Shown here piece after piece: positions 4,280 through 34,213 of a stretch of DNA of 64,000 nt. This DNA is from Theionarchaea archaeon (lineage in GTDB: Archaea > Methanobacteriota_B > Thermococci > Methanofastidiosales > SZ-28-30). The DNA is taken from NCBI GenBank assembly GCA_018992565.1, contig JACVGW010000003.1:178-64177 (forward strand), written 5' to 3'. Position numbers and translations under genes: made by a program. Each line of letters begins with the position of its first letter. Position 1 is the first letter of the stretch. Below the pieces are notes generated by a model. That model did not search any database. It was given only the letters and a program-made list of their open reading frames with translations, and had not been told where the DNA came from.

Positions 4280-4764
4280 AGACTGTTATCTCCATCACTG
4301 CTTTGGGGATCAGCATACCGTTCTATGCCCAGAGCTCAATTCACGGGGCAGAGATACTCATGGCAGTCTGTCTGGCTGCGTTGATATGGGTGTACCTCCC
4401 ACTCTCCAGGGTTCTGGTGGTTGTATGGGGGGCATTGCTGGTAACGGATATGCTGCTTCTGAGAATGAGTACGTATGCACTTATTTTTGTGGTAGCCTTC
4501 CTCATTGTCCTGTATGAGCTCTGCGATTTCTTGAATTTTCATTCCGTGGAAACAGATGTGCAGGAAACACATGATGAGGTCATGACAGCTCATCTGAAGT
4601 ACATTGCACTGTTATTCTTTGGATGCAGCATTATCCCTGCCATGATCGCTTTGCTGGCCCAGGTTGTTGGATTGCAGATCGGGCAGGAAGCCGCCTTAAC
4701 CATACTGCTCTATGCAGGGATAGTCCTCACAGTGCTGGCACTTGTCAAGCTCATACCTACGTGA
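4252..4764 (+). CDS. polytopic membrane protein
   Basis: At least five hydrophobic helices; internal ATG at 4252 preferred over the 4192 start, which overlaps DUF58 extensively. Confidence 0.4.
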   Translation, partial: TMAPKQATIKTVISITALGISIPFYAQSSIHGAEILMAVCLAALIWVYLPLSRVLVVVWGALLVTDMLLLRMSTYALIFVVAFLIVLYELCDFLNFHSVETDVQETHDEVMTAHLKYIALLFFGCSIIPAMIALLAQVVGLQIGQEAALTILLYAGIVLTVLALVKLIPT

Positions 4765-7279: not shown

Positions 7280-7776
7280 TCCATCACCCAGTATTCAACT
7301 GTGCTGGTATTCAAACGGAGTCCTTTGAAGGGAAGTTCCAGGACTATTTCAAGCTCCATCATCCATATCATCTTACCGAACTCTCTGGCCTCGTAAACGT
7401 ATTCCATAGGATACTGGTGGATATCTCCCGAGAACTGGACAACAGTCTCGCCAGGAGGTAATGTCTGGGTGTGGTAGAGTGCGTCTGATTTTATGAACCG
7501 TCCATTAACGTACAGGAGATACCGAATCTGAAACGTTCTCAGGACCACAGACGAGGGATTGATACACTTGAGCCTCACAGTCAATTCTCCCTGGTTCCCT
7601 TTTTCCTTGAGTTCCAGGCCTATCAGTTCATACTCCATACCGTGTGAAGCCTCGGCGGCCTGAACGTACCGCACAAGCGTCGTATAGAGAAATCCTCCAC
7701 TGATCAGCGCCCAGAAAAGTAAAAGAAGGAGGATAGCATTCTCTCTCTTCATACTACCCCCTCTGGAAACACGCAA
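7276..7776 (-). CDS. secreted/anchored hypothetical protein
   Basis: N-terminal signal/TM (AILLLLLFWALISGGFLY); overlaps neighbouring genes by 4 nt. Confidence 0.4.
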   Translation of the reverse strand: MRVSRGGSMKRENAILLLLLFWALISGGFLYTTLVRYVQAAEASHGMEYELIGLELKEKGNQGELTVRLKCINPSSVVLRTFQIRYLLYVNGRFIKSDALYHTQTLPPGETVVQFSGDIHQYPMEYVYEAREFGKMIWMMELEIVLELPFKGLRLNTSTVEYWVME

Positions 7777-8722
7777 CCCAGTGACCGTTTTCCACCTCTG
7801 TCAGGACAGGATCCTGTTGAGTACATATTTCTTTTGCATATTCGCATCGTGGTGCAAATCGACACCCGGGAGGCGGATTGATGGGAGTAGGGACACGCCC
7901 CCGTAACTCTATCCGCTCTCTCTTCTCCTTGGGATCGGGCACAGGTACAGCAGATAGAAGTGCCTTGGTGTAGGGGTGGTAAGGATTTCCAATGAGCTCT
8001 TCTGTTTCTGCCAGTTCCACCATTTTTCCCACGTACATGATGGCAACCCTGTTGCACATGTACCTCGCCACTGCCAGATCATGTGTGACAAAAACCAGCG
8101 TCAGGTTGAACCGCTCCTTCAACTCCAGGAGAAGGTTCATAACCCCTGCTCTGATAGACACATCCAGCATGGACATGGGCTCGTCTGCCACAATAAACTC
8201 AGGGTTGATCACCAGTGCTCGTGCCACTGCGATCCTCTGCCTCTGTCCTCCGCTGAGTTCATGAGGAAATCGGAAGATGAAATCCTCAGGCGGGTTCAGG
8301 TCTACAGTCTTTAGCGCATTGGCCACCAGCTCTTCTCGTTCTTCAGGGGTTCCAATGTCCTGGATAATCAGAGGCTCTGCTATAGTATCCATTATAGAGA
8401 ACCGGGGGTTTAGAGATTCATAGGGGTCCTGGAATATCATCTGCACATTCTTCCTGAATTCCTTGAGGGCAGACCCTTTCAAGTACGCTATGTCCTCTCC
8501 TTTGAAGTAAATGTGTCCTTCAGTAGGGTCAATCAATCGGACCAGGAGCTTTCCACAGGTGGTCTTTCCACATCCGGATTCCCCCGCCAGACCGAAGCTC
8601 TCTCCTTTTTCTATCTGAAAAGAAACATCTTCTACTGCATGAACAAAGTTCTGCTGTTTCTGGAAGAGACCTCCCTTGAGGGCGAATAATTTTGTCAGGT
8701 TTTGAACATCTAGTAACGGCAT
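7754..8722 (-). CDS. oppF: oligopeptide/dipeptide ABC transporter ATP-binding protein (OppF/DppF type)
   Basis: Walker [10 protein letters not shown], signature LSGGQRQR, Walker B IVADEP, C-terminal Cys-rich oligopeptide-type extension. Confidence 0.85.
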   Translation of the reverse strand: MPLLDVQNLTKLFALKGGLFQKQQNFVHAVEDVSFQIEKGESFGLAGESGCGKTTCGKLLVRLIDPTEGHIYFKGEDIAYLKGSALKEFRKNVQMIFQDPYESLNPRFSIMDTIAEPLIIQDIGTPEEREELVANALKTVDLNPPEDFIFRFPHELSGGQRQRIAVARALVINPEFIVADEPMSMLDVSIRAGVMNLLLELKERFNLTLVFVTHDLAVARYMCNRVAIMYVGKMVELAETEELIGNPYHPYTKALLSAVPVPDPKEKRERIELRGRVPTPINPPPGCRFAPRCEYAKEICTQQDPVLTEVENGHWVACFQRG

Positions 8723-8726
8723 TGGA

Positions 8727-9695
8727 TCACCTCAATGATAATTCTCCCGCATAATGACATGCTGCGTAGTGCCTCTCCTTGAATTCCTTGAAGACGGGCA
8801 CTTCTTCCTTGCACAGTCTCTGGGCGTAGGGACAGCGGGTATGGAACCTACATCCTGTGGGTGGGTTGAGCAGGTTAGGCGGTTCTCCTGGAATGGGGGT
8901 CAGCTTCTTTAAAGGTCCTTTAATACTGGGGAACGAGGAGAGCAGCCCATGGGTATACGGATGAAGGGGAGATGCGAACAGTGTAACAGAATCTGCATAC
9001 TCCACCACATTCCCTGCATACATGACAGCTATTCGCTCGCAGGTTTCAGCAATCACCGAGATGTCATGAGAAATGTACATCATGGTCATGTTGAGCTTGG
9101 CCTGTATTTTCTTGATTTCCTTTATGATGCTATCCTGGACAATCACATCCAGGGCAGTAGTGGGTTCGTCCGCAATGATCATGTCGGGATCACATGCCAG
9201 GGCCATGGCGATGATGGCCCGCTGCTTCATTCCTCCACTGTACTCATGGGGAAAGTTCTCTGCTCGTTCTGGGGACATACCAACCAGCTCATACAGTCGA
9301 GCTACCCGCTCATGTGCTTCTTCTTTGGTAACATCCTCGTGGATCATGATGGCTTCCACAATCTGATCTCCCACCTTGTACACTGGGTTGAGAGCATTCA
9401 TGGCAGCCTGGAAAATCATGGATATTCCATTCCACCTGACAGCCCTCATCTCGTCTTCAGATTTGGGGACCAGATCTTCTCCTTTGAACAGAATCTCTCC
9501 ATCCAGTATGCGTCCATTGTCAGGAAGAAGCTTCAGTATAGAGATTCCTATGGACGTCTTTCCACATCCAGATTCGCCCACCAGTCCTACAGATTCTCCC
9601 TTCCCGATTTCAAGAGAAACTCCCTCTACCGCTTTCACATCTCCTTTTTTGGTAGAAAAGTACATTCTTAGGTTATTGACTTCGAGAATCTTCAC
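8727..9695 (-). CDS. oppD: oligopeptide ABC transporter ATP-binding protein (OppD/DppD type)
   Basis: Walker [10 protein letters not shown], signature YSGGMKQR, Walker B IIADEPTTALD, C-terminal CRFHTRC motif. Confidence 0.85.
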   Translation of the reverse strand: MKILEVNNLRMYFSTKKGDVKAVEGVSLEIGKGESVGLVGESGCGKTSIGISILKLLPDNGRILDGEILFKGEDLVPKSEDEMRAVRWNGISMIFQAAMNALNPVYKVGDQIVEAIMIHEDVTKEEAHERVARLYELVGMSPERAENFPHEYSGGMKQRAIIAMALACDPDMIIADEPTTALDVIVQDSIIKEIKKIQAKLNMTMMYISHDISVIAETCERIAVMYAGNVVEYADSVTLFASPLHPYTHGLLSSFPSIKGPLKKLTPIPGEPPNLLNPPTGCRFHTRCPYAQRLCKEEVPVFKEFKERHYAACHYAGELSLR

Positions 9696-9699
9696 CGGA

Positions 9700-10611
9700 T
9701 CACCTTTTTCTCAATCTCGGATTGACGATTTCATCCACTGCTCTTCCAATGAGGTAAAATGAAAGCGTCATCATTGTGATGCACAACCCAGGGGGAAGCA
9801 TCCAGTACCAGGTGAATGTGCTCCCTGTTGTCCTGCACCACTGGAGCATGATACCCCAGCTCACCCGTGTGGGATCTCCCAGTCCCAGGTAGGAAACACC
9901 TGCTTCAGTCAGGATTGCACCCAGGACCAGGAAGCTCATGTACAGGAAACTGAGGGGGAGTACATTTGGACCGATGTGACGGAAAATGATTCGTGCATCA
10001 GTAGCTCCCGCCACCCGGGCTGCTTCCACAAAGGGCCTCTGCTTCAGAGACAGTGTTTGAGAACGGATAACCCTTGATATGCCTCCCCATGAAAGCAGAG
10101 CAATAATGAGCACCAGAACCCAGATGCTCTGCTTACCCACCGCTGCTGATACGACAATAATCAGAGGCAGGAAAGGCAGGGTCAGCACAATATCCACCGT
10201 CCTCATGAGCAGTGTATCTGTTGCACCTCCATAGTATCCAGACACCAGCCCCACTGTGGTTCCAATGGCAACTGCTACCACAGCCGCAGTCAGGCCAATG
10301 AGAAACGCAATCTGGGCCCCTGACATGAGCTGAGATAGAATGTCCCTGCCCCAGAAGTCCGTTCCCAGAAGATGGGTTGTAGAAGGAGGAGACTTGGAGA
10401 CAATATAGGGGTCAAATCCAGTCATGGGGTGATAAATAGGATCTATGTGGGGCATCACAAACCCGAGAAGGGCAAACACAAGGAAGAAAATAAGGAACCC
10501 AATTCCCACCAGTCCAATCTTGTTCTCTTTGTACATTTCCCAGCTCTTTTTCCATTGCTGGATGCGTGCTTCCCACTTGGTTCTTGGTTTTTGTTCGTCC
10601 ATTCTAACCAC
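9700..10611 (-). CDS. oppC: oligopeptide ABC transporter permease (OppC/DppC type)
   Basis: BPD_transp_1-type permease with N-terminal extension and six TM helices. Confidence 0.85.
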   Translation of the reverse strand: MVRMDEQKPRTKWEARIQQWKKSWEMYKENKIGLVGIGFLIFFLVFALLGFVMPHIDPIYHPMTGFDPYIVSKSPPSTTHLLGTDFWGRDILSQLMSGAQIAFLIGLTAAVVAVAIGTTVGLVSGYYGGATDTLLMRTVDIVLTLPFLPLIIVVSAAVGKQSIWVLVLIIALLSWGGISRVIRSQTLSLKQRPFVEAARVAGATDARIIFRHIGPNVLPLSFLYMSFLVLGAILTEAGVSYLGLGDPTRVSWGIMLQWCRTTGSTFTWYWMLPPGLCITMMTLSFYLIGRAVDEIVNPRLRKR

Positions 10612-11589
10612 CTAGTACACAATTCTTGGATCTAAATAGGCATAGAGAATATCTGCCACCAGGTTTGCCACCAACACCATCAGGGCGATAAACAAGAACG
10701 AAGCCTGGGCCAGTGGATAATCAAAGGTCAGGGTTGCATCCACAATCAATTTACCCAACCCTGGGTACGAAAAGGTGGTTTCCGTGAGAACACCCCCTCC
10801 CACAGACCCGGCAACTGCAATGGCAAAAGCGGTCACCACGGGCAGCATGGCATTACGGGCAGCATGCCTGTCTCTGATTGTTTTCTCCGGTAACCCCTTT
10901 GCTCTGGCTGTCATGATATAGTCTTCTCGGAGCGTCTCCAGCATACTGGTACGCATCACCAGCATGCTCCCTGCAAAGAATGCCAGAGTCAAGACGGACA
11001 ACGGCAGTGCCACATGGTGCAAGACATCTAGCGCCTTGAGCCATATACTCGACGTGGGGTCTGACCAGACATCAGGGCCTTTCAGCCCTCCTAGCGGGAA
11101 TAAACCGAATTTATAGGAAAATATCCACAGCATGATGAGTCCCACCCAGAAAATCGGCATACAATAGAAGAACAGCCCAAAGAGTGTGGACCCAAACTCA
11201 AGCTTTCCTCCCCTCCTCCAGGCAATGATCTTGCCAAGTGTTATTCCCAGACTGTACGAAATGACATAAGACCCTGTCCACAAGAGAAGTGTTGCAGGGA
11301 GCTTCTCCATCACCAGATCGTAAACAGGCCGTGCATAGTAAAACGAACGCCCAAAATTCCCCCTGAAGAAATTCTTAAGATACAAAAGATATTGATACCA
11401 TATTGGCTTATCAAGACCAAACTGAGCTCGAATGATGGCTTTGTGCTCAGGTGTCATTCTGGTATCCAGCATGAAAGCAGTTGGATCTCCAGGCATCATT
11501 CTAAAGAGAATGAACATAATTGTCATAATAATTATCAGGGTTAAGAATATCTGTACTACCCTCTTTACGATGTACTTTTGCATGCTCAC
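10612..11589 (-). CDS. oppB: oligopeptide ABC transporter permease (OppB/DppB type)
   Basis: EAA-loop permease; motif MTARAKGL typical of OppB/DppB. Confidence 0.85.
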   Translation of the reverse strand: MSMQKYIVKRVVQIFLTLIIIMTIMFILFRMMPGDPTAFMLDTRMTPEHKAIIRAQFGLDKPIWYQYLLYLKNFFRGNFGRSFYYARPVYDLVMEKLPATLLLWTGSYVISYSLGITLGKIIAWRRGGKLEFGSTLFGLFFYCMPIFWVGLIMLWIFSYKFGLFPLGGLKGPDVWSDPTSSIWLKALDVLHHVALPLSVLTLAFFAGSMLVMRTSMLETLREDYIMTARAKGLPEKTIRDRHAARNAMLPVVTAFAIAVAGSVGGGVLTETTFSYPGLGKLIVDATLTFDYPLAQASFLFIALMVLVANLVADILYAYLDPRIVY

Positions 11590-11657: not shown

Positions 11658-13496
11658 TTAATTTCGCCTCTTGAGATAGAACGCGCTACCTCCAATCACT
11701 GCAAGCGCCACAAAGAGCGTTCCGAGACACGTTCCGCCTCCTTCTTCTTCCTCTTCTTCGGCTGCAGGTGTCTCCTCTGGAGCTGCAACAGGTTTGACGT
11801 ACATGATGGAGTCTGCAATTCCGTCAAGCTGATCAAACCAGCCAGAGAAGTGGTCGTTCCTGTAGGCTTCAACGGCCGCAGGAGCAAACAGTGGAATGTA
11901 CGGTACTTCATTCGCCAGGTACTCCTGCAGTTTGAACGCTGCCTGAATCTTCTCTTCCCGTGGTCCACAGGTGACCAGGTCATCAGCCAGTCTGTCAAAC
12001 TCGGGGTTGGAGTACTGAGGAATATTGTAACCATACTCCATGATCTGCGAGGAGTGGAAGAAGTCTCTCAGGTAGTCAGGATAGATGGTCAGAGACCAGC
12101 CCAGAACGAACATGTCGTAGTCACGCTCACCCATAGCCTTCTGGACAATAGTACCAAACGCAGTGGGTTGAGCAGCAACGGGTAGGCCAATCTGTTTCAG
12201 CCATTCCTGAATCAGCATACCGGACATAGCACGCAGTGGGTCGTAATCAGCAGGCGGTGTCAGGATAACAAATGGCTTGATGTACTCTCCCTTGTACTTA
12301 ATGCCTTCTCCAGGGACAACAGCTCCTTCTTCAACAGTGGGCTCCACATCCCAGGAGTAATTTCCTGTCTGCTTGAGGATATCCACTGCTTCCAGGACTC
12401 TGTCTGTCATGGGCTTGCCATAGCCCCACTTGGTGACTTCAGTGTTGTACCACTGACGGTTGCCTGGGGGCACAACAGAGTAGAGAGCTTCACCATAGTT
12501 CTGCAACACTCTCTCCTGGATGAAGTCCCTGTCAACAAGAGTTGCCACAGCCTGTCTGAAAGCCACATCGCTGAAGGGTTCTCTTGCACAGTTGAACGCC
12601 ATGTACCGCATTCCGTTTTCAGGATTGTTGGTTACAGTGACATTGGGATCTGCTAAGAGATCTGACACATATCCGGGCTGAATTGCCCACCATATGTAGT
12701 CAATCTCACCCTTTTTCAGTCCTAGAATAGCAGCATCGGTGGTATCATAAATCCTGTACACGATATAGTCATAGTACGGACCGTGAACCAATTGAGTCCC
12801 ATCATCATACACATGGGTGCGACCGAAGTCGAAGTAGTCGGGGTTCTTCTTACACTTGACATATGAACCTCTCTGCCATTCCATGAAGATGAGTGGCCCA
12901 CAGCTCACCATTTCACCAGGTTCTACTGGCTGGTATTCCTGCAGAGCCTTGGTGGGGCTCTCTGCAGCTCTAAACTCAGCGAGTTTGGGTTCCCAGATGT
13001 GACTGGGTATTGGCAAACTCATGAGAGTTCCTTCAATAAAGGTTACTCTACATTCAGAGAGCACAAAGTGCAGAGTGTAGTCATCAAGAGCCTCCACTGT
13101 GTCGACAAATTCCCAACTGGACAGGTAGCGGCCAATCTGGAACTCCTTGACCATGTTACCAAACAAGGCATAGTCGTGAGCAGTCAGTGGTTTTCCATCA
13201 GACCATGTTGCGTCGTTCCTGAGCTTAACGGTGTACTCAAGCTTGTCAGAGGAAACCTCCGGCACTTCAAGAGCCACATTGGGAACGATCTTGAAGTCAA
13301 TCGGTCTGTATGTTACCAATCCTTCGTAGAAATAGGTCAAAACATTCCAATCCCATACATCCTGGGCCTGGAAAGGATTCATTGTCTTTGGCTCGTCTTG
13401 CATTCCAACGTTGAATGTCACTCCGCCCTGCGAGTGTACCGGTGCCATGCTAGCTACCAAAATTGCTACAATAGCGACTATAAAGAGTCTTTTCAT
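11658..13496 (-). CDS. oppA: ABC transporter substrate-binding protein, family 5 (oligopeptide-binding), with a C-terminal Gly/Glu linker, Cys and TM anchor
   Basis: SBP_bac_5 architecture and signal peptide; C-terminus EEEEEEGGGTCLGTLFVALAVIGGSAFYLKRRN; good SD (AAAGGAGG) upstream. Confidence 0.8.
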   Translation of the reverse strand: MKRLFIVAIVAILVASMAPVHSQGGVTFNVGMQDEPKTMNPFQAQDVWDWNVLTYFYEGLVTYRPIDFKIVPNVALEVPEVSSDKLEYTVKLRNDATWSDGKPLTAHDYALFGNMVKEFQIGRYLSSWEFVDTVEALDDYTLHFVLSECRVTFIEGTLMSLPIPSHIWEPKLAEFRAAESPTKALQEYQPVEPGEMVSCGPLIFMEWQRGSYVKCKKNPDYFDFGRTHVYDDGTQLVHGPYYDYIVYRIYDTTDAAILGLKKGEIDYIWWAIQPGYVSDLLADPNVTVTNNPENGMRYMAFNCAREPFSDVAFRQAVATLVDRDFIQERVLQNYGEALYSVVPPGNRQWYNTEVTKWGYGKPMTDRVLEAVDILKQTGNYSWDVEPTVEEGAVVPGEGIKYKGEYIKPFVILTPPADYDPLRAMSGMLIQEWLKQIGLPVAAQPTAFGTIVQKAMGERDYDMFVLGWSLTIYPDYLRDFFHSSQIMEYGYNIPQYSNPEFDRLADDLVTCGPREEKIQAAFKLQEYLANEVPYIPLFAPAAVEAYRNDHFSGWFDQLDGIADSIMYVKPVAAPEETPAAEEEEEEGGGTCLGTLFVALAVIGGSAFYLKRRN

Positions 13497-13862
13497 ACAC
13501 GAACCTCCTTTTCTCTTTTGCCGATCGAGTCGGCTATTACTCCTAATAGCATCCTACTTATAAAGGTTTCTGTCAAGGGTCAAAGAGGTCCAGAAGGTAG
13601 CTAAGCAAACATAGAGGATACTCTTCCCTTTTTCTGTCATCCTGAGTCAAAAGTCAACAGAACCACCCTTTTCTGAGCACGACTGTGCACGTATTAATGT
13701 TTTCCCACCATACTCACATGGCGGCGATCCTCTGTCTGCTCATTGTGGCAGAACAAAAGAAAGAGTCCTTTGTCATCCATATCATTCTCTCATGAATCCA
13801 TCTTTACCAGAGACTGCCATCCTCTCCCCGTATTGAACTCCCTGCATAGAGATGAGAACCTA

Positions 13863-14012
13863 GACCAACAATGAGAATATCACGGCCACAACGAAGAGAA
13901 AGACCAGTACCAGAATGTAGGGGAGAAAAATCTGCCAAAGGGCAATAGTAAAGGCGATGACATCTTTCGTGTCGGCCTTGTACTCCAGGTTATTTTCCAT
14001 GTCTTCCATTAC
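13863..14012 (-). CDS. possible small membrane protein (49 aa)
   Basis: ATG-initiated ORF MEDMENNLEYKADTKDVIAFTIALWQIFLPYILVLVFLFVVAVIFSLLV directly downstream of the 486-aa gene; below the ORF-track length cutoff. Confidence 0.25.
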
Positions 14013-14018: not shown

Positions 14019-15479
14019 CTACTCCTCATCTGAATAGAGATTTAAAAAGGTTTCTTGTGCCGATTCTGCAAGAAGAGAGAAGTCATTCGCTATTTCAGGG
14101 GACGCCTTGCTGCAAACCTTGAGAGCAACAGCCAGCATGATGAACCCTCCTGCATAAAAGAACACATCATGTGATAGAACAGTGGGCACATTCTCTCTGA
14201 GAAGAACAATCAATATGACCAGCCTCACTATATTCCACGCTGAAATCATGCCGAATCCTGCAAGAGAGAGGAGTACTTTTTCCTTGAAGGACGTGGTAGT
14301 GGCAAAGATCATTCCCACAAGTACTGCAATGAAGAACAGAGAGAGACAGGATTTCTCTATGGAACAGCCCTCCAGAAAGACAAAATCACTCCCTGCCACA
14401 TATGTCGTATAGATTCCACATGCATCAAGAATCCCCTTTGTGATCAAAGCAACTGCCTTCCTGAGCAGAAAATAGTCTGAAATATAGTAGATGATCACAG
14501 AGACTATGGCTGCTTTAACCACGAATGCACTGATTTCGTTGGAGATGAAGAAAAAGTACAATTTTTCCAGCGCATTCTCTTTCCGAGGATATTCACGGGT
14601 CATCAGTTCGTCCAGGAATATGGGCAGCAAAAGAATAAGCGTCATGATGATCACCCAGAAGGGTATGATCACGTTACTTGGTTGACGGATATCACTGTAC
14701 TGCGCCCTCTTGTCCAGGTTCACTTCAAAGATTTCTCTGGTAGACATACCTGTTATGAAATATGTATTATCTTCTCCTGCTGCAATTGCTCTGGGAAGAC
14801 TGTCAGGAGCGTAGTACCATAGAGTGGTCGTCTTGGACCTTGGATTGATGTGGTATACCTTGCGCGAGGTCACTCCTGTAACGATGATCTGACCGTTCTT
14901 GTATGCAATGTCTCCTGCGAAAGGCGTGGGTGATTCAAGAGTCTCCAGGATTTCTCCTGAATCTGGATCATATCGATATAAGAAAGAATTGGGGTAAATG
15001 TTGGCATAGAGATCGGGATACTCTTCAAGCCCAAACACATCCAGAACCCACAGAGACTCACCGTCCCAGGCCAGCCCATAGGGAGTACTGTAGGGGGCCA
15101 CATATGACCCCTCGATGGTCCCGTCCATAGCCACTTTATAGATGGTCCTTCTGGCATAGTCAGCTACCCAGAAGTCCTCCCCATCAAACGTCAATCCAGC
15201 GGCCTCGAAGCAGGGCACCTCTATTGTCCGAATGACCTGCTTCGTGTTCAGATCGTATTCCAGGAGCGCCTTGTCAAGACCTGAGGATATCCAGAGAGAG
15301 CCCTCGAGATAGTACAGCCCATTGGTGGTGTAGGTAGGGCGCTCAAAGATTTCGTCATTCTTGTATCGATTGGGGACAAACTTTTGCCCTTTCCACTCCT
15401 GGTATTCCCTGTTGGCAAAGAGAGCAAATAAGAAAAAGAAGAAAACGGCCACGACCAGTTTCTTGTTGTCGCTTTTCAT
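14019..15479 (-). CDS. fusion of a glutaminyl-cyclase-like (plant/bacterial type) beta-propeller domain to a C-terminal polytopic membrane domain
   Basis: N-terminal signal anchor; segment YTTNGLYYLEGSLWISSGLDKALLEYDLNTKQVIRTI...GLTFDGEDFWVAD matches the glutamine cyclotransferase beta-propeller pattern; C-terminal ~230 aa contain about six TM helices. Confidence 0.45.
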   Translation of the reverse strand: MKSDNKKLVVAVFFFFLFALFANREYQEWKGQKFVPNRYKNDEIFERPTYTTNGLYYLEGSLWISSGLDKALLEYDLNTKQVIRTIEVPCFEAAGLTFDGEDFWVADYARRTIYKVAMDGTIEGSYVAPYSTPYGLAWDGESLWVLDVFGLEEYPDLYANIYPNSFLYRYDPDSGEILETLESPTPFAGDIAYKNGQIIVTGVTSRKVYHINPRSKTTTLWYYAPDSLPRAIAAGEDNTYFITGMSTREIFEVNLDKRAQYSDIRQPSNVIIPFWVIIMTLILLLPIFLDELMTREYPRKENALEKLYFFFISNEISAFVVKAAIVSVIIYYISDYFLLRKAVALITKGILDACGIYTTYVAGSDFVFLEGCSIEKSCLSLFFIAVLVGMIFATTTSFKEKVLLSLAGFGMISAWNIVRLVILIVLLRENVPTVLSHDVFFYAGGFIMLAVALKVCSKASPEIANDFSLLAESAQETFLNLYSDEE

Positions 15480-16478
15480 TTAGATCAATGGATAGTGACA
15501 GGCCACAAAATGGCCGTCTCCCATATCTCGCAGCTGAGGAATCTCTGTGGCACAATTTTCTTTGGCATATCGACAGCGGGGATGGAACCTGCACCCTTTA
15601 GGCGGATTGGCGGGCGTGGGCACATCGCCTGTAAGGATGATCCTCTTCCTCTTCCTCCGAGGATCTGCTATGGGGGCTGCTGAAAGAAGTGCTTCAGTAT
15701 AGGGATGGTACATCTTCTCGAAGATCTGCTCTTCCTTGCCCATCTCAACGACGACACCCACATACATCACAGCTACCCGATCACTGATGTGCCTGACGAT
15801 GCTCAGATCGTGAGTGATAAACAGCATGGTCAATCCTTCTTCCTTCTGGATGTCAGACAGCAAGTTGAGTATCTTTGATTGAACAGAGACATCCAGTGCA
15901 GAGGTGGGTTCATCTGCCACAATCAACTTGGGCTTGAGGGCAATAGCCCGGGCTATCCCAATTCGCTGTCTCTGTCCTCCAGAGAATTCGTGTGGGTACC
16001 GGTATATGTGGAAGGGCGCCAACCCAACTTCACTCATGAGACGCAGAATGACCTTCTTCTTCTCTCCTGACTTCAGTTCACCATGGATGTCGAAGGGTTC
16101 TCCGATAATATCGTACACTGTCATCCTTGGATCCAGTGATGAGTACGGGTCCTGGTATATCATCTGAGCTTCTTTCCTGAACTCCTTCAGTTCACTGGTC
16201 CCCAGCGTGCTGACGTCTTTTCCTTCAAAGAGGATTTCTCCTGCTGTTGGTTCGATAAGCCTCAAGATAGTCTTTCCCAGTGTCGTCTTTCCACATCCAG
16301 ATTCACCCACAATACCCAGGATCTCTTTAGGCAAGACATCGAAACTCACATTGTCGACTGCCCTGATATCTCCCACCTTTCGCCCGAAGAATCCTGCAGT
16401 AATGGGGAAGTACTTCTCCAGATTCTTAATCTCCATAATTGGGTTCATAGCTTGGTCCCCTCCCTTCTGTGCCAGCAT
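15480..16478 (-). CDS. oppF: oligopeptide ABC transporter ATP-binding protein (OppF type), second operon
   Basis: Walker [10 protein letters not shown], signature FSGGQRQR, Walker [13 protein letters not shown]-terminal CRFHPRC motif. Confidence 0.85.
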
Positions 16479-17425
16479 TCAACATAGTGATCACCAACCC
16501 ACTCTCCTTTTGGTTGTTCTTTTTCGCAGACCTCTGTTGAAAAGTCACACCGAGGGTGGAACCTGCAACCAGATGGAGGATAGATGAGATTCGGGACAAC
16601 ACCCTTGATAACACCCAGCTTCTGCTTCTTCTCTGTCACCCTGGGTACGGCCTCATGAAGTGCTATGGTATAGGGGTGAAGTGGAGCATGGAAAATGGTA
16701 TCAGCATCTCCATATTCAACCAGCCGTCCAGCGTACATCACTCCCACATGATCAGACATCTCAGCAATGACACCCAGGTTGTGGGTGATGAGCAAGACTG
16801 TTGTGCCCAGCTCTTTCCTGAGGTTGTTTATCATATCCAAAACCTGTGCTTGAACTGTCACGTCGAGGTTTGTGGTGGGCTCGTCTGCTATCAGCATCTT
16901 GGGATTACATGAGAGAGCCATTGCAATCATGACTCGCTGCTTCATTCCTCCACTGAACTGATGGGGGTAGTCCTCCACACGAGCCTCAGGGTCAGGAATT
17001 CCCACAAGATCCAGCATTTCTATGGCTTTTTGTCTGGCCTCTTTCTTATCAAGACCCTGGTGAAGTTCAATCACCTCTCTCAACTGGTTGTCCACCGTAA
17101 ATACAGGGTTAAGCGCACTCTGGGGATCCTGGAAAATCATCGATATGTCGTTTCCTCTGATCTGCCTCATATCGCTCTCAGAAAGAGCAAGGAGGTTCAC
17201 ACCTTCAAAGAGTATCTCTCCCTCGATTATTTTCCCAGGAGGATCAGGAACAAGTCTGAGAACGGAAAGGGCAGTGACTGTTTTTCCACAACCAGATTCA
17301 CCCACCAGTCCCAGCGTTTCTCCCTGTTCAATGTGAAGATCGATTCCTTCCAACGCTCTTACTATGCCATCCTCTGTGTAAAAGTAAGTTTTCAGTCCTT
17401 TAATTTCCAGTAGATTATCAGCCAA
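16445..17425 (-). CDS. oppD: oligopeptide ABC transporter ATP-binding protein (OppD type), second operon
   Basis: Walker [10 protein letters not shown], signature FSGGMKQR, Walker [12 protein letters not shown]. Confidence 0.85.
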
Positions 17426-17429
17426 AATA

Positions 17430-18368
17430 TCACCTTTTCAGTCGAGGATCCAGTGAATCTCTGATTCCATCACCCAGCAGGTTGAATCCCAAGACGGCGA
17501 TGAATATCATGATACCAGGTAGTACTGTAATCCACCAGGCTGTCCTCATGACATCTCTCCCTTCTGCGCATATTCGTCCCCAGGAAGGAATCACAGGATT
17601 TCCGAAGCCCAAGAATGCAACACCTGCTTCAGTCAGAATCGCAGCTGCCATACCGAAGGTTGCTGCTACAATGACAGGTGCAATTGCGTTGGGAAGCATA
17701 TGCCTCAAGATGATTCGGAGGTTGGATGCTCCCAATCCTCGTGCTGCTTCTGTAAACTGCCTTTCTCTGAGGGACAGAATTTCACTCCGTATTAGTCGGG
17801 CATACCCTGTCCAGTTGATGAAAGCGATGGCCAATCCAATCATGATCAGACCGCCTTCAGGATACAGAGTCACCAAAATTACAACTATTGGTATGAAGGG
17901 CAGTGCCAGGAAAATATCCACAAGTCTCATGAGGAATATGTCCAATACTCCTGCGTAGAAAGCAGAGATTGCTCCATAGAGGGTGCCAACTACTCCACCA
18001 ACGCCTACTGCAACAATCCCCACCAGGAGGGATCTCTCAGCACCGTACAGCAGGCGAGAATACAGACATCTTCCCAGAGCATCAGTGCCAAGTGGATATT
18101 GAGGGTTTTCACCTGGAGCAAGATAGCTGTTCATGAGCGAAACAGTATTAGGATCATTCGGTGAAATCTGCGGGGCCAAAACTGCCATGAGCACGACCAC
18201 CAGGAACACTGCCAATCCCACAATACCTGCTTTGTTTCTGATGAAGCGCCGGAGGGTGGTCATGAGTATTCCTGCACTTCGTTCGGCCTCGCGCAACTGC
18301 TGCTCCAGCTCTTTGTCCATTTCAGGTACTTCAGTAGTTTTCTTCTTCTTTTCTGCCATTGAAATCAC
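17430..18368 (-). CDS. oppC: oligopeptide ABC transporter permease (OppC type), second operon
   Basis: Permease with N-terminal extension; paralog of 9700..10611. Confidence 0.85.
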   Translation of the reverse strand: MISMAEKKKKTTEVPEMDKELEQQLREAERSAGILMTTLRRFIRNKAGIVGLAVFLVVVLMAVLAPQISPNDPNTVSLMNSYLAPGENPQYPLGTDALGRCLYSRLLYGAERSLLVGIVAVGVGGVVGTLYGAISAFYAGVLDIFLMRLVDIFLALPFIPIVVILVTLYPEGGLIMIGLAIAFINWTGYARLIRSEILSLRERQFTEAARGLGASNLRIILRHMLPNAIAPVIVAATFGMAAAILTEAGVAFLGFGNPVIPSWGRICAEGRDVMRTAWWITVLPGIMIFIAVLGFNLLGDGIRDSLDPRLKR

Positions 18369-18375
18369 CTATAGA

Positions 18376-19476: not shown

Positions 19477-21393
19477 TTAGTCCTTTTTCTTTACCATGTA
19501 ACCAATGGCAAGTCCGACGATCAGGGCAACTATTCCAATCACAATGAGTGTCGTTGTAGACGTGCCGGCTCCTGCTTCTCCGCCTTCCACAGTCACTTCC
19601 TTCTCTATGATGTAGAAGCGGTATCCTGCCATGTCCATAAGTTCTCGTGCCTTAGCCAGGTCATATGAATCTGGGGCAACGTTGGTGTTGAACGCCCATG
19701 AGGGAACAGCAACAGGATTCCTTCCGGGTACACCATAGCCACCCAACAGGTTATCAACAATTCCCTGTCTGTCAATACAGTGGGAGATAGCCTGTCTCAC
19801 ATACTTGTTGGCCAGGTATGGGTTGCGGCAGTTGAAGTGCAGGTGCTGGTATCCGAACTGCTCTGACGTCCACAGCTTGACTCCGGGAGTAGCCTCGAGC
19901 TCCTCACCAATGATTGTCAAGTTGTAATAGGTGTCCACAATGTCTGCTTCGCCAGTTTCCAGGGCAACACGGGCTGCCTCTCTCTCAGGTATCAGCTTCA
20001 GTACCAGGAAGTCGCATCCAGCATCTGGGAGACCGTACTTGGCACCCCAGTAGTCGGCATTCTTCTTCAGCTTCCAATACTGATCGGCTTCCCAGGAGTC
20101 AAAGACGAAGGGTCCAGAACCAATAACGGTCTCTCCCCTGTTAACATCAGACTCCATCCAGCCAGTGGCAGCTTCTGCTCCCGTTATGGGGATACTACCG
20201 TAGACGTGCTTTGGCAGAATGTTCACATCACAGTTTCTCAGCCACGCAGCGTGGGGCATTCCCACGAATACTCTCAGCGTGTACTTGTCAATGATCTCTG
20301 ATCCACCATACACATCTCTGAATGTCCCGTATCCCTGGAATGCAGTATCCGGGCTGACACAGGCGTCAAAGGACCACTTGATGTCTTCACTGGTCATTTC
20401 TACGCCATCGTGGAACATGATACCTTCTTTTATCTTGATGTCAAAGTACTCCGGGAATACGACGGGTTCAGCAAGTTTGGAACTCACATTGCACTTCTTG
20501 ACATCAGGTGCAAGAGCTTCAATTGAGGCATCATCCAGCATGCTGGGTGCAAAGACAATGGTAGGCCCTTCTGTTGCAGAGTCAGCCAGTACTGGTGACT
20601 GGTTCAGATTCTCATCGTTCTGCCATAGTGTCTGGAATATTTGCTGGTTGCAGTAGTACCCATACACTGAGTTCCATCTCCATACCAGCATACCCTCGAC
20701 AGCTGCAGGCGTAGCGTATACAATGGTGTCCTTTCCTGGAATTGACCAGGACGCGGCATCATAATTCTGTGTCCACAGTAATCCACTGAACCCATCCAAT
20801 GTGTCCACTGAAGCCCACATGTTGAGTGGAATGTATACAACACAGTAGGGCTTCTCGTCTGCAACAATCTCCTGCCATCTCCACAGGTAATCCTTTCTGG
20901 TTTCCTGATTCAGTTCGACTCGTGCTTTAGCCAGCATCTCGTCGGACTCAGGGCAGTACCAGAATGTAACGTTGTTACCAATTGGTGTCATAGCAGAAGA
21001 GTGGAATATGTCGAATGGGTCAGGGTCTACACCCACAGACCAGCCGAACGAAGAAATATCGAATCCATCTTCAGAATAGGCTTTTCCATAGTAGTTGTTG
21101 AACTCTCTGTTGATCAGGTCACCGAATTCCAGCAACTTGAAGTCAGCCTGAATGCCAATCTTGGGCATCTCAAGGTTAACAGCCTGAGTATACTGCTCTC
21201 TCACTTTGTTACCAATGGGTGCAATTTGCGTAATCGTAAAGAACGGTGGATACTTTGAATAATCCTCAGTAAAAGGCACTTTTGTGATCTGCTGTTCCTG
21301 AGCAATCGCTGTTGTCCCGAATAAAGACAGTACCAAAGAAGTCAAGAGAACAATCGACAGCACCATTGAGACTTTTCTTGTTTTTACATTCAT
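19477..21393 (-). CDS. ABC transporter substrate-binding protein (peptide-binding, family 5) with a C-terminal Gly/Thr linker and TM anchor; close paralog of 32312..34213
   Basis: Start moved to MNVKTRK (ATG 21393) with GGAGG 10 nt upstream; signal peptide; about 80% amino-acid identity to the 32312 gene by eye; C-terminus GGEAGAGTSTTTLIVIGIVALIVGLAIGYMVKKKD. Confidence 0.8.
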   Translation of the reverse strand: MNVKTRKVSMVLSIVLLTSLVLSLFGTTAIAQEQQITKVPFTEDYSKYPPFFTITQIAPIGNKVREQYTQAVNLEMPKIGIQADFKLLEFGDLINREFNNYYGKAYSEDGFDISSFGWSVGVDPDPFDIFHSSAMTPIGNNVTFWYCPESDEMLAKARVELNQETRKDYLWRWQEIVADEKPYCVVYIPLNMWASVDTLDGFSGLLWTQNYDAASWSIPGKDTIVYATPAAVEGMLVWRWNSVYGYYCNQQIFQTLWQNDENLNQSPVLADSATEGPTIVFAPSMLDDASIEALAPDVKKCNVSSKLAEPVVFPEYFDIKIKEGIMFHDGVEMTSEDIKWSFDACVSPDTAFQGYGTFRDVYGGSEIIDKYTLRVFVGMPHAAWLRNCDVNILPKHVYGSIPITGAEAATGWMESDVNRGETVIGSGPFVFDSWEADQYWKLKKNADYWGAKYGLPDAGCDFLVLKLIPEREAARVALETGEADIVDTYYNLTIIGEELEATPGVKLWTSEQFGYQHLHFNCRNPYLANKYVRQAISHCIDRQGIVDNLLGGYGVPGRNPVAVPSWAFNTNVAPDSYDLAKARELMDMAGYRFYIIEKEVTVEGGEAGAGTSTTTLIVIGIVALIVGLAIGYMVKKKD

Positions 21394-21402
21394 ATGTTTT
21401 CT

Positions 21403-21422
21403 ACCTCCTTTGATCGGTATTG
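21403..21422. repeat. exact 20-bp direct repeat ACCTCCTTTGATCGGTATTG (copy 1, overlaps the RBS of the 19477 gene)
   Basis: Identical 20-mer at 32227..32246 in the same orientation on the plus strand, although the adjacent paralogous genes are inverted. Confidence 0.7.
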
Positions 21423-21464
21423 TATCCAACTACAGTGAAAGACTTATAAACCTTTCGGTTTCAG

Positions 21465-32168: not shown

Positions 32169-32226
32169 ATTTTGAATAGTATCTACAACTGAGACAATCC
32201 CGGGCCGTTCACTGGATGAAGATGTC

Positions 32227-32246
32227 ACCTCCTTTGATCGGTATTG
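32227..32246. repeat. exact 20-bp direct repeat ACCTCCTTTGATCGGTATTG (copy 2); its CCTCCTTTG is complementary to the SD CAAAGGAGG at 32292-32300
   Basis: Identical to 21403..21422; can pair with the downstream SD (9-bp stem, ~45-nt loop) in the leader of the 32312 gene. Confidence 0.7.
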
Positions 32247-32311
32247 CACATTCGATCCGACATCACATCTGGTGGATGGCAAGGGAAATGGAGACCAAAG
32301 GAGGATTAAAA

Positions 32312-34213
32312 ATGAATACAAGAAAAATTTCGGCAATCCTGTCAGTTGTGCTCGTTGCTTCTCTCGTAATATCCCTTTTCGGAACTACCACCGTCGCTCA
32401 GGAGGAGACGATGACGCAGGTACCTTTCACCGAAGACTATTCAAAGTACCAGCCATTCTTCACCATTACGCAGATTGCACCCATTGGTAACAAAGTGAGA
32501 GAGCAGTACACCCAGGCTGTCAATCTTGATATGCCCAAGATTGGCATTCAGGCTGACTTCAAGTTGCTGGAGTTCGGTGACCTGATCAACAGAGAGTTCA
32601 ACAACTACTACGGAAGCACATTTGCGGAGGACGGATTCGACATTTCTTCGTTCGGTTGGTCTGTGGGTGTAGACCCAGACCCATTCGACATATTCCACTC
32701 TTCTGCTATGACACCAATTGGTAACAACGTCACATTCTGGTACTGCCCTGAGTCCGACGAGATGCTGGCTAAAGCACGAGTCGAGGCAGATCAGGCAACC
32801 AGAAAGGATTACCTGTGGAGATGGCAGGAGATTATCGCTGACGAGAAGCCTTACTGCGTAGTATATGTGCCACTGCTCATATGGGGCTCAACGGACAAAT
32901 TGGAAGGATTTGACCCACTGCTATGGCTGCAGAACTATTCCTTGGAAACCTGGGAGATCCCAGGAAAGGACACCATTGTATATGGATCACCTGCAGCTGT
33001 GGAGGGTATGCTGCCCTGGAGATGGAACTCAGTGTATGGTCGTTATCTGCACTCACAGATATTTGAAAGCCTGTGGCTTGTAGATAGCAACCTTATGATA
33101 ACACCACGACTTGCTGACTCAGCAACAGCAGGGCCTACCATTGTCTTTGCCCCCAGCGCTATTGACGATGCCTCAATTGAAGCTCTTGGACCTGATGTCA
33201 AGGAGTGCAAGGTGAATGACAAGCTCGCTGAGCCTGTCGTCTTCCCCAAGTACTTTGACCTCAAGATCAGAGAAGGTATCATGTTCCACGATGGCGTGGA
33301 AATGACCAGTGAGGACGTCAAGTGGTCAATGGATGCTGTTATCAGCGCAGACACTGCATTCCAGGGATGGGGTACATTCAGAGACATATACGAAAGCTCA
33401 GAAATCCTTGACAAGTACACAGTAAGAGTATATGTTGGAATGCCTCATGCCGCATGGGTTCTGTACTGTAACCCAACTGTGCTGCCAAAGCACGTCTACG
33501 GTAGTATCCCCATAACGGGAGCAGAAGCTGCCACCAGCTGGATGGAATCTGACATCAACAGGGGAGAGAACGTTGTTGGTTCTGGACCCTTCATGTTTGA
33601 CTCCTGGGAAGCTGACCAGTTCTGGAAGATGAAGAAGACACCCAACTACTGGGGTACCAAGTACGACGTTCCTGACCCACAATTCGAATACTTCTTGATC
33701 AAGTTGATACCTGAGAGAGAAGCTGCCCGTGTAGCTCTGGAAACTGGTGAAATTGACATCATGGATACCTACTACCAGCTCGGTGCAATTGCTCAGGACC
33801 TGGAAGCTACTCCTGGCCTGAAGCTGTGGACCACAGAAGACTTCGGATACCAGCACCTGCACTTCAACTGCCGCAACCCATACCTGGCCAACAAGTATGT
33901 GAGACAGGCTATCTCCCACTGTATTGACAGACAGGGAATTGTTGATAACCTGTTGGGTGGCTATGGTGTACCCGGTGCTAACCCTGTTGCTGTTCCCTCA
34001 TGGGCGTTCAACACCAACATTGCCCCAGATTCATACGATCTGGTTAAGGCACGAGAGCTCATGGACATGGCAGGATACCGTTACTTCATCGTTGAGAAAA
34101 CAAGCGAAGCAGGTGGAGAAGAAGAGGCCGGAGGCGGACTCTGTCTTGGAACCCTGTTCATAGCCCTTATGGTTTTGGGCGGAAATCTGCTGTATCTCAA
34201 GAAGAGAAACTAA
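32312..34213 (+). CDS. ABC transporter substrate-binding protein (peptide-binding, family 5); orphan paralog of 19477..21393 with an OppA1-type C-terminal Cys-TM anchor
   Basis: Start moved to MNTRKISA (AAAGGAGG 9 nt upstream); signal peptide; long stretches identical to the 19477 gene product; C-terminus GGEEEAGGGLCLGTLFIALMVLGGNLLYLKKRN; no permease or ATPase genes adjacent. Confidence 0.8.
   Translation: MNTRKISAILSVVLVASLVISLFGTTTVAQEETMTQVPFTEDYSKYQPFFTITQIAPIGNKVREQYTQAVNLDMPKIGIQADFKLLEFGDLINREFNNYYGSTFAEDGFDISSFGWSVGVDPDPFDIFHSSAMTPIGNNVTFWYCPESDEMLAKARVEADQATRKDYLWRWQEIIADEKPYCVVYVPLLIWGSTDKLEGFDPLLWLQNYSLETWEIPGKDTIVYGSPAAVEGMLPWRWNSVYGRYLHSQIFESLWLVDSNLMITPRLADSATAGPTIVFAPSAIDDASIEALGPDVKECKVNDKLAEPVVFPKYFDLKIREGIMFHDGVEMTSEDVKWSMDAVISADTAFQGWGTFRDIYESSEILDKYTVRVYVGMPHAAWVLYCNPTVLPKHVYGSIPITGAEAATSWMESDINRGENVVGSGPFMFDSWEADQFWKMKKTPNYWGTKYDVPDPQFEYFLIKLIPEREAARVALETGEIDIMDTYYQLGAIAQDLEATPGLKLWTTEDFGYQHLHFNCRNPYLANKYVRQAISHCIDRQGIVDNLLGGYGVPGANPVAVPSWAFNTNIAPDSYDLVKARELMDMAGYRYFIVEKTSEAGGEEEAGGGLCLGTLFIALMVLGGNLLYLKKRN

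Follow-up and report, generated by a model that had tools for sequence, protein, structure and literature searches.

A cysteine-containing C-terminal tail on secreted proteins of Theionarchaea as a candidate lineage-specific sorting signal

Why should two distant binding proteins of one archaeon end in nearly the same short tail? The question is raised by the 64,000-nucleotide stretch of Theionarchaea DNA that was analysed here (the window), in which the original prediction had pointed to a Cys-containing module at the C termini of two ABC transporter substrate-binding proteins (SBPs). The first carrier, an OppA-like SBP_bac_5 protein of 612 residues (positions 11658 to 13496, minus strand; 'ABC transporter substrate-binding protein [Theionarchaea archaeon]' at NCBI), starts with the signal peptide MKRLFIVAIVAILVASMAPVHSQ and ends in EEEEEEGGGTCLGTLFVALAVIGGSAFYLKRRN. 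Downstream of its gene lie two permease and two ATPase genes of a peptide ABC transporter (7754 to 11589, minus strand), assigned from their open reading frames and the Pfam families of orthologous genes. The second carrier, an orphan SBP_bac_5 protein (32216 to 34213, plus strand), ends in GGEEEAGGGLCLGTLFIALMVLGGNLLYLKKRN; translation probably begins at the Met of MNTRKISAIL, close to position 32312.

Both tails were found at the predicted positions. From the Cys codon to the stop codon, the module spans 11658 to 11729 in the OppA-like gene (minus strand; CLGTLFVALAVIGGSAFYLKRRN) and 34142 to 34213 in the orphan gene (plus strand; CLGTLFIALMVLGGNLLYLKKRN), with a length of 23 residues in either case. 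A signature G-x-C-L-G-T passes directly into a hydrophobic helix of ~15-18 residues with a central (G/A)-G, which is followed by K/R-K/R-R-x. The tails have 16 of their 23 residues in common, compared to an identity of 24% between the mature domains. The description of the two proteins as otherwise unrelated goes too far: both belong to the SBP_bac_5 family, although they are distant and, apparently, circularly permuted with respect to one another.

Since the two genes are located 20 kb apart in one genome and short hydrophobic tails can be alike by composition, the likeness might be biologically meaningless, arising from chance or from a recent gene conversion. A degenerate DNA pattern of the motif matched two sites in the 64 kb, exactly the two tails, and none in 100 dinucleotide-preserving shuffles of the window; by chance, zero matches are expected in the window. 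Over the 23 codons, the tails differ by 10 synonymous and 7 non-synonymous changes, and the synonymous differences argue against a recent conversion. Together with the 51 distinct versions of the tail that were gathered, on unrelated proteins and from many samples and assemblies, these observations refute an origin by chance or conversion, to which we assign next to no probability.

The tail is not confined to the two binding proteins. It is borne by secreted proteins of at least six unrelated kinds, in agreement with the predicted tripartite, modular C-terminal signal. It was found on three SBP_bac_5 subfamilies, on a Peptidase_C25 protein encoded on the window's contig ~5 kb past the window end, on DUF7901/DUF11 adhesin-like proteins, a propeller/Ig-like protein, a transglutaminase-core (Transglut_core)/TPR protein and small unknown proteins. 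Each full-length carrier begins with an N-terminal signal peptide, including OppA, the orphan SBP, the C25 peptidase and the proteins L017, L022, P0133 and P0136, and all tails terminate at the stop codon. For most non-SBP carriers the origin from Theionarchaea is putative; their contigs have a GC content of 39-46%, compared to 47.7% for the window. Among 1.84 billion representative proteins, a tail search yielded only 11 matches at E<0.001, which suggests that the family is either small or poorly sampled. In species-representative genomes, which apparently include few Theionarchaea, a strict DNA pattern, too narrow for counting carriers per genome, found only the orthologues of both genes, on one Theionarchaea MAG contig. 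A word-indexed search of 5.8 billion proteins with a two-sequence, 45-residue tail alignment returned nothing, the source proteins included, the profile being too weak.

The Cys is kept in all 27 tails that were derived by homology, and C, L, G and T are all kept in 26 of them, with C-S-G-A as the odd one out. Among the 51 distinct tails, 45 have the exact length of 23 residues and G14 is almost invariant; as the DNA pattern constrains the tails found with it to C-[L/F]-G-T, G14 and 23 residues, these statistics are partly circular. Positions 20-22 are K/R. A backward lipobox of the N-terminal type was considered for the Cys and rejected, the preceding residue being T, L, G, I, P or M and not the required small residue. 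The tail is joined to the mature domain of the OppA-like protein by an acidic, Pro- and Gly-containing linker (11730 to 11790, minus strand; AAPEETPAAEEEEEEGGGT), which varies in length and sequence among close orthologues (P0002-P0013), while the tail remains unchanged among orthologues of more than 90% identity. Between the window and the L031 orthologue, the tail shows 10 synonymous codon changes against 4 non-synonymous ones, whereas the linker, compared without gaps, shows 3 and 15, respectively. The orphan SBP orthologue in L008 also retains the tail (CLGTMFIALMVLGGNLLYLKKKE). Synonymous changes outnumber replacements in the tail while the adjoining linker is free to vary, as had been anticipated from selection on the motif; judged from the sequences, this supports a tripartite and modular signal at the C terminus on which purifying selection acts.

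A close paralogue of the orphan SBP (19477 to 21429, minus strand; GTSTTTLIVIGIVALIVGLAIGYMVKKKD), the first gene of an operon that ends in an archaeosortase-like gene, is 75% identical to it up to the linker. As predicted, it has a different tail, which is conserved, ends in GAGTSTTTLIVIGIVALIVGLAIGYMVKKKD and contains no Cys; only the helix and the basic part of this tail match the LPXTG_anchor model. The DNA homology between the two genes breaks off at the linker, and from GGAGGCGGA onward the orphan SBP aligns with the OppA tail and not with its paralogue, which indicates a module swap.

None of the NCBIfam models of C-terminal sorting signals matched the CLGT tail at cutoff. To our knowledge, PGF-CTERM/ArtA is the only C-terminal sorting signal that has been studied experimentally in archaea, and the exosortase/archaeosortase signals PGF, PEF, PEP and VPXXXP contain a Pro and no invariant Cys. 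The PGF-CTERM/ArtA system of Haloferax volcanii and other Euryarchaeota, in which a C-terminal lipid anchor is attached once the helix is removed (PMC6098224), has the tripartite C-terminal architecture in common with the CLGT tail, but its signals lack the invariant Cys. The designation 'PGF-CTERM-like' of the original prediction is not borne out by the sequence, which has no Pro and no P-G-F, and the PGF-CTERM model gave no match to CLGT tails at E≤10.

CGP-CTERM, in contrast, is borne by orthologues of the window's OppA at the same position as the CLGT tail. In the archaeal orthologues that come closest outside Theionarchaea (46-47% identity; P0028, P0029, P0031 and P0032), the tails consist of I/L-C-G-P, a helix and RRR. 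Like the CLGT tail, CGP-CTERM is archaeal, forms the extreme C terminus of many secreted proteins, peptide-binding proteins among them, and is composed of an invariant Cys, a Gly soon after it, a short abutting helix and a basic cluster. The two differ in their signatures (C-G-P versus C-L-G-T without a Pro), in length (~20 versus 23 residues) and in the preceding linker, which is Thr/Ser-rich in front of CGP-CTERM and acidic and Gly/Pro-rich in front of the CLGT tail, and the latter is further distinguished by the conserved (G/A)-G in the middle of the helix and the K/R-K/R-R-N ending. The CGP-CTERM model TIGR04288 (cutoff 21 bits) accordingly had no match at E≤10 in ten CLGT tails or whole proteins, while the P0032 tail as a positive control scored 26.5 bits. 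The lineages differ as well, with CGP-CTERM found in Thermococcales, where the archaeomyxosortase MrtA (NF040590) is its predicted enzyme, and the CLGT tail in Theionarchaea.

The class of Cys-containing signals was defined in 2023, with CGP-CTERM as its only archaeal member, reported to be exclusive to Thermococcales. It was described by Haft as having an invariant Cys that abuts the helix without a spacer, conserved residues within the helix and a cluster of basic residues (bioRxiv 10.1101/2023.06.07.544157), and the CLGT tail has all of these features. The exact motif is undescribed, as had been stated, while the class of signal was already known. An invariant Cys that abuts the helix characterises the MYXO/JDVT/Synerg/CGP-CTERM class, whose assigned enzymes are CPBP (Rce1-like) proteases and not archaeosortases (bioRxiv 10.1101/2023.06.07.544157; PMC11980579). 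All four described Cys-containing signals are paired with CPBP proteases (bioRxiv 10.1101/2023.06.07.544157), and Cys-dependent cleavage by such a protease was demonstrated for one of them, MYXO-CTERM/MrtX (PMC11980579). This system of Myxococcota serves as the experimental anchor for the mechanism that we propose for the CLGT tail. It is likewise tripartite with an invariant Cys, and both the Cys-dependent cleavage by an intramembrane protease and the predicted lipidation are taken from it (PMC11980579); it differs in being bacterial, longer and often provided with a second Cys, and its proteins go on via type II secretion to an outer membrane, which archaea do not have. A further resemblance exists to the CAAX box and its protease Rce1, including archaeal MmRce1, where a CPBP-family enzyme cleaves directly after a lipidated Cys. 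In both cases aliphatic residues come after the Cys (CLGT compared to CLVS, the ending of the MmRce1 test substrate), but the CAAX box is cytosolic and forms the very end of the protein, whereas in the CLGT tail the Cys would lie outside the cytoplasm, with a transmembrane helix after it.

The modularity of the tail, the selection on it, the tail swap between paralogues of 75% identity, the positional equivalence to CGP-CTERM, the class features described by Haft and the resemblance to the CAAX box lead us to interpret the tail ('CLGT-CTERM'), with moderate confidence, as a lineage-specific, tripartite, Cys-bearing C-terminal sorting signal of Theionarchaea and a cousin of CGP-CTERM. The carriers would be exported via Sec through their N-terminal signal peptides, and the hydrophobic segment and the K/R cluster would retain the C terminus within the membrane and place the Cys at its outer face. 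By analogy with MYXO-CTERM/MrtX and CAAX/Rce1, the Cys side chain would then be lipid-modified and an intramembrane endopeptidase would cut just after the Cys and discard the helix, so that the protein would remain on the cell surface by its C-terminal lipid. For binding proteins this could provide a mobile tether beside their own transporter, with the same tag used on secreted proteases and adhesin-like proteins. Given these precedents, lipid modification of the Cys and removal of the helix by an intramembrane protease are probable; that the Cys could be a lipidation or processing site had been proposed and agrees with current thinking on the Cys-containing class. As the enzyme we favour, on the same analogy, a CPBP/MrtA-like protease, with the archaeosortase-family protein encoded at 14019 to 15479 as the alternative candidate.

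No gene for a CPBP protease (PF02517) was found in the window, in the 10 kb adjoining it at each end or in the remaining loci that were fetched, which together represent a small part of a genome. A regular expression for the CPBP motifs (EExxxR…FxxxH…HxxxN/D in multi-helix open reading frames) gave no candidate in 302 kb of fetched DNA, and a Pfam search with the window's unassigned membrane proteins gave no PF02517. Neither a CPBP gene nor a second archaeosortase was seen in the 10 kb past either end of the window or near four further carriers. The archaeosortase-family protein is the only sorting-type enzyme found nearby, which points to a different chemistry and counts against a CPBP protease.

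This protein of 486 residues (14019 to 15479, minus strand), a candidate processing enzyme, carries a membrane anchor at its N terminus, followed by an extracytoplasmic β-propeller (~residues 30-265) and, at the C terminus, by a membrane domain of several helices, of which a structure model shows five to six. It scores 31.4 bits against TIGR04178 as a whole and 33.6 bits with the C-terminal domain alone, at a cutoff of 23. The named subfamilies ArtE, XrtX, XrtY, XrtH, XrtF and heimdallarchaeosortase reached at best 17-26 bits against cutoffs of 86-170, and the other named archaeosortase/exosortase subfamilies, including ArtA to ArtD, did not match. It represents a previously unclassified archaeosortase subfamily, which differs from ArtA also by the additional β-propeller. 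Eleven full-length homologues were obtained (51-100% identity), of which three have precomputed PF09721 matches; C378, N416/R419 and H437 are invariant among them, and a catalytic role of these residues is assumed by analogy with ArtA (PMC6098224). A Foldseek search of the PDB with the model of the C-terminal domain (pLDDT 67) gave nothing better than E ~0.9. The start of the gene abuts or overlaps the last ATPase gene of the upstream operon in every case, and in the window it abuts the stop of that gene; there, this operon comprises two permease and two ATPase genes of a second peptide ABC transporter (15480 to 19368, minus strand; Pfam families of orthologues). Directly after the archaeosortase-like gene lies that of a conserved single-helix mini-protein of 49 residues (13860 to 14009, minus strand; DVIAFTIALWQIFLPYILV), and a mini-protein of 49-80 residues follows every homologue examined. 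A carrier of the motif thus has an archaeosortase gene of family level as a neighbour, but this gene is not ArtA and its constant partner is an SBP without the Cys. With the motif on at least six kinds of protein and this gene present, the findings are the opposite of those named as speaking against the original prediction, a motif restricted to two proteins in a genome free of archaeosortase-like genes.

Could this enzyme itself recognise and remove the CLGT tail, transferring a lipid to the new C terminus in the manner of ArtA, with the Cys as part of the recognition motif or as a second modification site? Its gene lies on the strand of the OppA carrier, ~0.5 kb upstream of it, and this order is kept where the enzyme is 54-100% identical (window, L001-L007, L031 and L040), probably also in P0141/P0010 and P0146/P0011, pairs whose contigs agree in length. 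The protein lies above the TIGR04178 cutoff, has the invariant Cys, Arg and His, and its subfamily (~12 clusters in 5.8 billion proteins) is as narrowly distributed as the tail. The gene is, however, constantly linked to the operon upstream of it, in which the SBP ends in the Cys-less tail, and not to a carrier of the Cys tail, which speaks against the proposed archaeosortase signal. In the L030 and L032/L033 lineages no CLGT gene follows the archaeosortase-like gene, none of the other carriers examined has such a gene nearby, and the Pro-containing archaeosortase signals that we know of lack an invariant Cys, while the described Cys signals pair with CPBP proteases. We therefore consider processing by the archaeosortase doubtful. 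Tentatively, the enzyme beside the CLGT tail may process it with the propeller as an extracytoplasmic substrate dock and the 49-residue mini-protein as a subunit. If so, an exosortase/archaeosortase-type enzyme and not a CPBP protease would for the first time be acting on a Cys-containing C-terminal signal, and Theionarchaea would run Cys-less and Cys-bearing tails through one new sorting machine within a peptide-uptake locus.

The tail might also not be processed at all and serve as a permanent transmembrane anchor, the conserved residues mediating packing of the helix with a membrane partner or the Cys having a structural or redox role. Archaeal binding proteins commonly have C-terminal helix anchors after flexible linkers; in the oligopeptide-class binding proteins of Sulfolobus, which have a signal peptide, a flexible linker joins the binding domain to a hydrophobic segment at the C terminus. 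The hydrophobic stretch of ~18 residues could span the membrane, and the Cys-less paralogue as well as a 701-residue neighbour (4757 to 6862) likewise end in a helix and basic residues. But the Sulfolobus proteins have neither a signature motif nor a Cys, and their tail is not common to unrelated families. The occurrence of the CLGT tail on proteases, adhesin-like and transglutaminase-like proteins argues against a membrane partner specific to one transporter. A four-residue signature, a Cys at the membrane edge, a fixed length of 23 residues and the helix-breaking (G/A)-G are features of a cleaved signal, and the plain-anchor tail of the 701-residue neighbour is not conserved between lineages. 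A permanent anchor is accordingly unlikely in our view.

C-terminal sorting signals decide which proteins remain on the archaeal cell surface. A Cys-containing sorting signal in Theionarchaea would bring the Cys class into an uncultured sediment lineage, where its signature is distinct. As current annotation models miss this signature, dozens of surface proteins, among them peptide-binding proteins, proteases and adhesin-like proteins, are annotated without an anchor. That the type of tail follows the lineage and not the protein family is the pattern expected if signal and enzyme co-evolve. The unclassified archaeosortase subfamily beside a carrier makes the enzyme class for Cys tails testable, with two candidate genes and a tag of 23 residues. 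In practical terms, this would yield a new annotation HMM and a compact tag for archaeal surface display.

Scans of the window for tRNA genes and Rfam families gave no matches.

In agreement with the original prediction, two proteins encoded in the window share one C-terminal layout, a G-x-C-L-G-T motif followed by a helix and a K/R cluster, which we term the CLGT tail (CLGT-CTERM). The 612-residue OppA-like binding protein (11658..13496, minus strand) ends in …EEEEEEGGGTCLGTLFVALAVIGGSAFYLKRRN and the second, orphan binding protein (32216..34213, plus strand) in …GGEEEAGGGLCLGTLFIALMVLGGNLLYLKKRN. Searched for with a degenerate DNA pattern, the motif occurs in the window at these two genes only, and in 0 of 100 shuffled sequences. 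The tails are identical at 16 of 23 residues, while the mature domains, with 24% identity, are as distant as anticipated. Divergence at synonymous sites had also been claimed, and the 23 tail codons indeed show 10 synonymous and 7 non-synonymous differences, which excludes recent gene conversion of the tails. The carriers are not, as had been stated, otherwise unrelated, since both are SBP_bac_5 proteins.

The expected difference from the close paralogue of the second binding protein (19477..21429, minus strand) was borne out: this protein is 75% identical yet ends in …GTSTTTLIVIGIVALIVGLAIGYMVKKKD, without a cysteine. DNA homology between the two genes ends at the linker, beyond which the second binding protein aligns with the OppA tail; this switch indicates that the tail behaves as a swappable module. 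Relative to the OppA-like protein, both paralogues appear to be circularly permuted: OppA residues 433-542 align with residues 106-222 of the paralogues, OppA residues 88-335 with residues 347-584, and the Pfam SBP_bac_5 match is limited to the C-terminal half of each (profile positions 19-278). On a Theionarchaea MAG contig (L008, JACVGT010000019.1), an intact orthologue of the orphan binding protein is accompanied by another ORF, whose end EEEAGGGFCLGTLFIALMKTNHLFRRE seems to be a copy of this tail altered by a frameshift or truncation.

An identical OppA protein occurs in MAGs that NCBI lists as Theionarchaea archaeon (also 'Candidatus Methanofastidiosia'; NCBI taxonomy places Theionarchaea within Methanobacteriota) and in several sediment metagenome assemblies. 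Among OppA orthologues more than 90% identical, the linker varies in length and sequence, and the tail C-LGTLFV[AV]LAVIGGS[AT][VF]YLKRRN is constant. Compared with a 75% identical orthologue (locus L031), the tail of the window OppA has 10 synonymous and 4 non-synonymous codon changes, and the 20 linker codons beside it 3 synonymous and 15 non-synonymous (ungapped, an inflated figure). Homologues of 39-89% identity retrieved by a full-length homology search contributed 27 different archaeal tails, several from proteins named Theionarchaea; 26 read G/x-x-C-L-G-T and one C-S-G-A. Bacterial homologues (48-52% identity) have no tail.

Nor is the motif confined to these two proteins: in total, 51 distinct tails were collected, some on proteins other than binding proteins. 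Scanning metagenomes with a degenerate pattern located 21 loci: one is a chance match, and at the others the tail terminates long ORFs, whose products include 640-residue proteins with DUF7901 and DUF11 domains, a 606-residue propeller/Ig-like protein, part of a binding protein carrying WEKA repeats and an unknown fragment. A search of 1.84 billion representative proteins with a profile built from 19 tails returned 11 matches at E<0.001 (one a repeat artefact), with a 192-residue secreted protein, a 533-residue transglutaminase-core/TPR protein and two further unknown proteins among the carriers. A looser regular-expression scan of all fetched DNA added a 263-residue ORF (C-terminal end …CGCLGTVFVCAIVFLGAAAKQK) and, on the same contig ~5 kb beyond the right end of the window, a 782-residue secreted Peptidase_C25 (gingipain-like) protein with two Big_7 domains (L037 14175-16523, minus strand), whose CLGT tail is shorter, at 21 residues (C-terminal end …NSTSCLGTTLVSLLILLGATVKLRR). 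The lineage of most carriers that are not binding proteins is provisional; every full-length carrier has a signal peptide. The distance from Cys to the end is exactly 23 residues in 45 of the 51 tails, and these 45 have Gly at position 14 (44/45), Gly or Ala at position 13 (43/45) and K/R at positions 20-22; tails from the DNA pattern were preselected for C-[L/F]-G-T, G14 and the 23-residue length, the unbiased sets being the homology-derived, profile-derived and loose-regex ones. Very probably, the CLGT tail serves secreted proteins as a common, modular sorting or anchoring signal under selection, of relevance to archaeal cell-surface research and annotation.

The motif had been thought undescribed, and its signature, length and lineage are absent from NCBIfam and the literature searched. 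On the CLGT tails, every NCBIfam C-terminal sorting model (June 2026 release) stayed below its cutoff, with Loki-CTERM (13.3 bits; cutoff 19.9) and PEP-CTERM (11.9 bits; cutoff 16) scoring highest. Of the proposed likeness to archaeosortase/exosortase signals, the tripartite type stands, but not the PGF-like match. MYXO-, JDVT-, Synerg- and CGP-CTERM are tripartite signals with an invariant Cys, and comparative genomics links each to an intramembrane endopeptidase of the CPBP family (Rce1-like, PF02517), which for CGP-CTERM is MrtA (NF040590); the chemistry proposed for the class is lipid attachment to the Cys and then a cut just distal to it (Haft, bioRxiv 10.1101/2023.06.07.544157). MrtX has since been demonstrated to cleave MYXO-CTERM in a Cys-dependent manner in Myxococcus, and this cleavage was also reconstituted in E. 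coli (PMC11980579). At the sequence level, the CLGT tail shows all features of this Cys-containing class, which is already known. C-L-G-T also resembles a CAAX box, and the test substrate of archaeal MmRce1 ended CLVS.

The closest archaeal OppA homologues outside Theionarchaea (P0028, P0029, P0031 and P0032; 46-47% identity) have a C terminus made up of I/L-C-G-P, a helix and a basic cluster. Their C-G-P tails come after a short linker, which itself follows the final domain motif shared with OppA, GWF..L.GI..SI.YLKP; on its own, the tail of P0032 reaches 26.5 bits with CGP_CTERM TIGR04288 (cutoff 21). Judged by these ends, members of one protein family bear CLGT in Theionarchaea and CGP-CTERM in a different set of lineages, so the tail type tracks lineage, not protein. 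These bona fide CGP-CTERM tails lie on metagenome proteins, one (P0028) named Hydrothermarchaeales; CGP-CTERM has been described as exclusive to Thermococcales (Haft, bioRxiv 10.1101/2023.06.07.544157).

By analogy with the class, it is moderately likely that processing of the CLGT tail modifies the Cys and removes the helix, and a plain, unprocessed anchor appears improbable. Among candidate enzymes a CPBP-type protease is favoured, though tentatively, and no CPBP gene occurs in the ~84 kb of this genome read. Co-occurrence with an archaeosortase was a check proposed with the original prediction, and the window does contain such a gene: a 486-residue archaeosortase/exosortase-family ORF (14019..15479, minus strand) lies between two peptide-transporter operons, and its C-terminal 200 residues score 31-34 bits on the signature model TIGR04178 (cutoff 23). 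It invariably closes a peptide ABC-transporter operon as the final large gene; in every context examined, its start abuts or overlaps the last-ATPase stop in the operon whose first gene encodes the Cys-less binding protein, and a conserved one-helix mini-protein of 49-80 residues (in the window 13860-14009, minus strand) always follows directly. In lineages with an enzyme 54-100% identical, the CLGT-bearing OppA gene is next, 0.4-0.5 kb downstream (window, L001-L007, L031, L040); it does not follow in two more divergent lineages (L030, L032/L033), and no archaeosortase-like gene of this kind was found near the other CLGT carriers examined. Linkage to the Cys-less binding protein is hence constant, that to a CLGT carrier frequent but not constant. 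Proximity to the OppA carrier makes this enzyme a real candidate for processing the CLGT tail. Its partner in the operon is the Cys-less protein, though, and to our knowledge the archaeosortase signals that have been named lack an invariant Cys; overall, this role is rather unlikely. Another enzyme would account for the remaining probability.

Pfam recognizes only a β-propeller-like N-terminal part in the 486-residue protein, which falls far below every cutoff of the named exosortase/archaeosortase subfamily models. Only about a dozen full-length homologue clusters exist among 5.8 billion proteins, several homologues being labelled 'exosortase/archaeosortase family protein' by JGI and three having PF09721 matches. 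C378 (in K-[S/A]-C-L), W415-N416-x-x-R419-L420 and H437 (then D or N) do not vary among homologues at 51-100% identity. The AlphaFold model (pLDDT 76) comprises a signal-anchor helix, the propeller and a helical membrane domain; PDB comparison of the archaeosortase-like C-terminal domain model gave no match better than E of about 0.9. The protein belongs to a previously unclassified archaeosortase subfamily, fused to an extracytoplasmic β-propeller, that has no named model. The Cys-less tail (19477-19580, minus strand), with orthologous tails in L030-L033, keeps the pattern …G-[ST]-T-T-T-L-[AI]-[IV]-[IV]-G-I-[VI]-A-L-I-[VI]-G-L-[AG]-I-G-Y…K-K and scores 20-22 bits on LPXTG_anchor (cutoff 15.9) through its helix and basic part only, with no LPXTG motif. 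It could be a dedicated substrate of the archaeosortase-like enzyme of its operon.

Further peptidase-family genes in the window encode a clostripain-family (C11) protein that has a signal peptide and an S-layer-like C-terminal domain (37559-40021, plus strand), a caspase-like (C14) membrane protein beside an ECF/CbiQ-type transporter (27243-28085, plus strand) and an M28 peptidase (44721-46682, minus strand). Together with the two peptide transporters, these three genes fit a peptide-scavenging lifestyle. The window also encodes a BlaR1-like M56/M48 membrane peptidase (23301-24638, plus strand), whose gene adjoins a Penicillinase_R-type repressor gene in the related loci L001, L031, L039 and L040. 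An eight-helix membrane protein (54576-55700, minus strand) matches PF01901 (putative O-antigen polymerase) with E=4e-32 and an oligosaccharide repeat-unit polymerase model below cutoff, and may have a role in surface glycan assembly.
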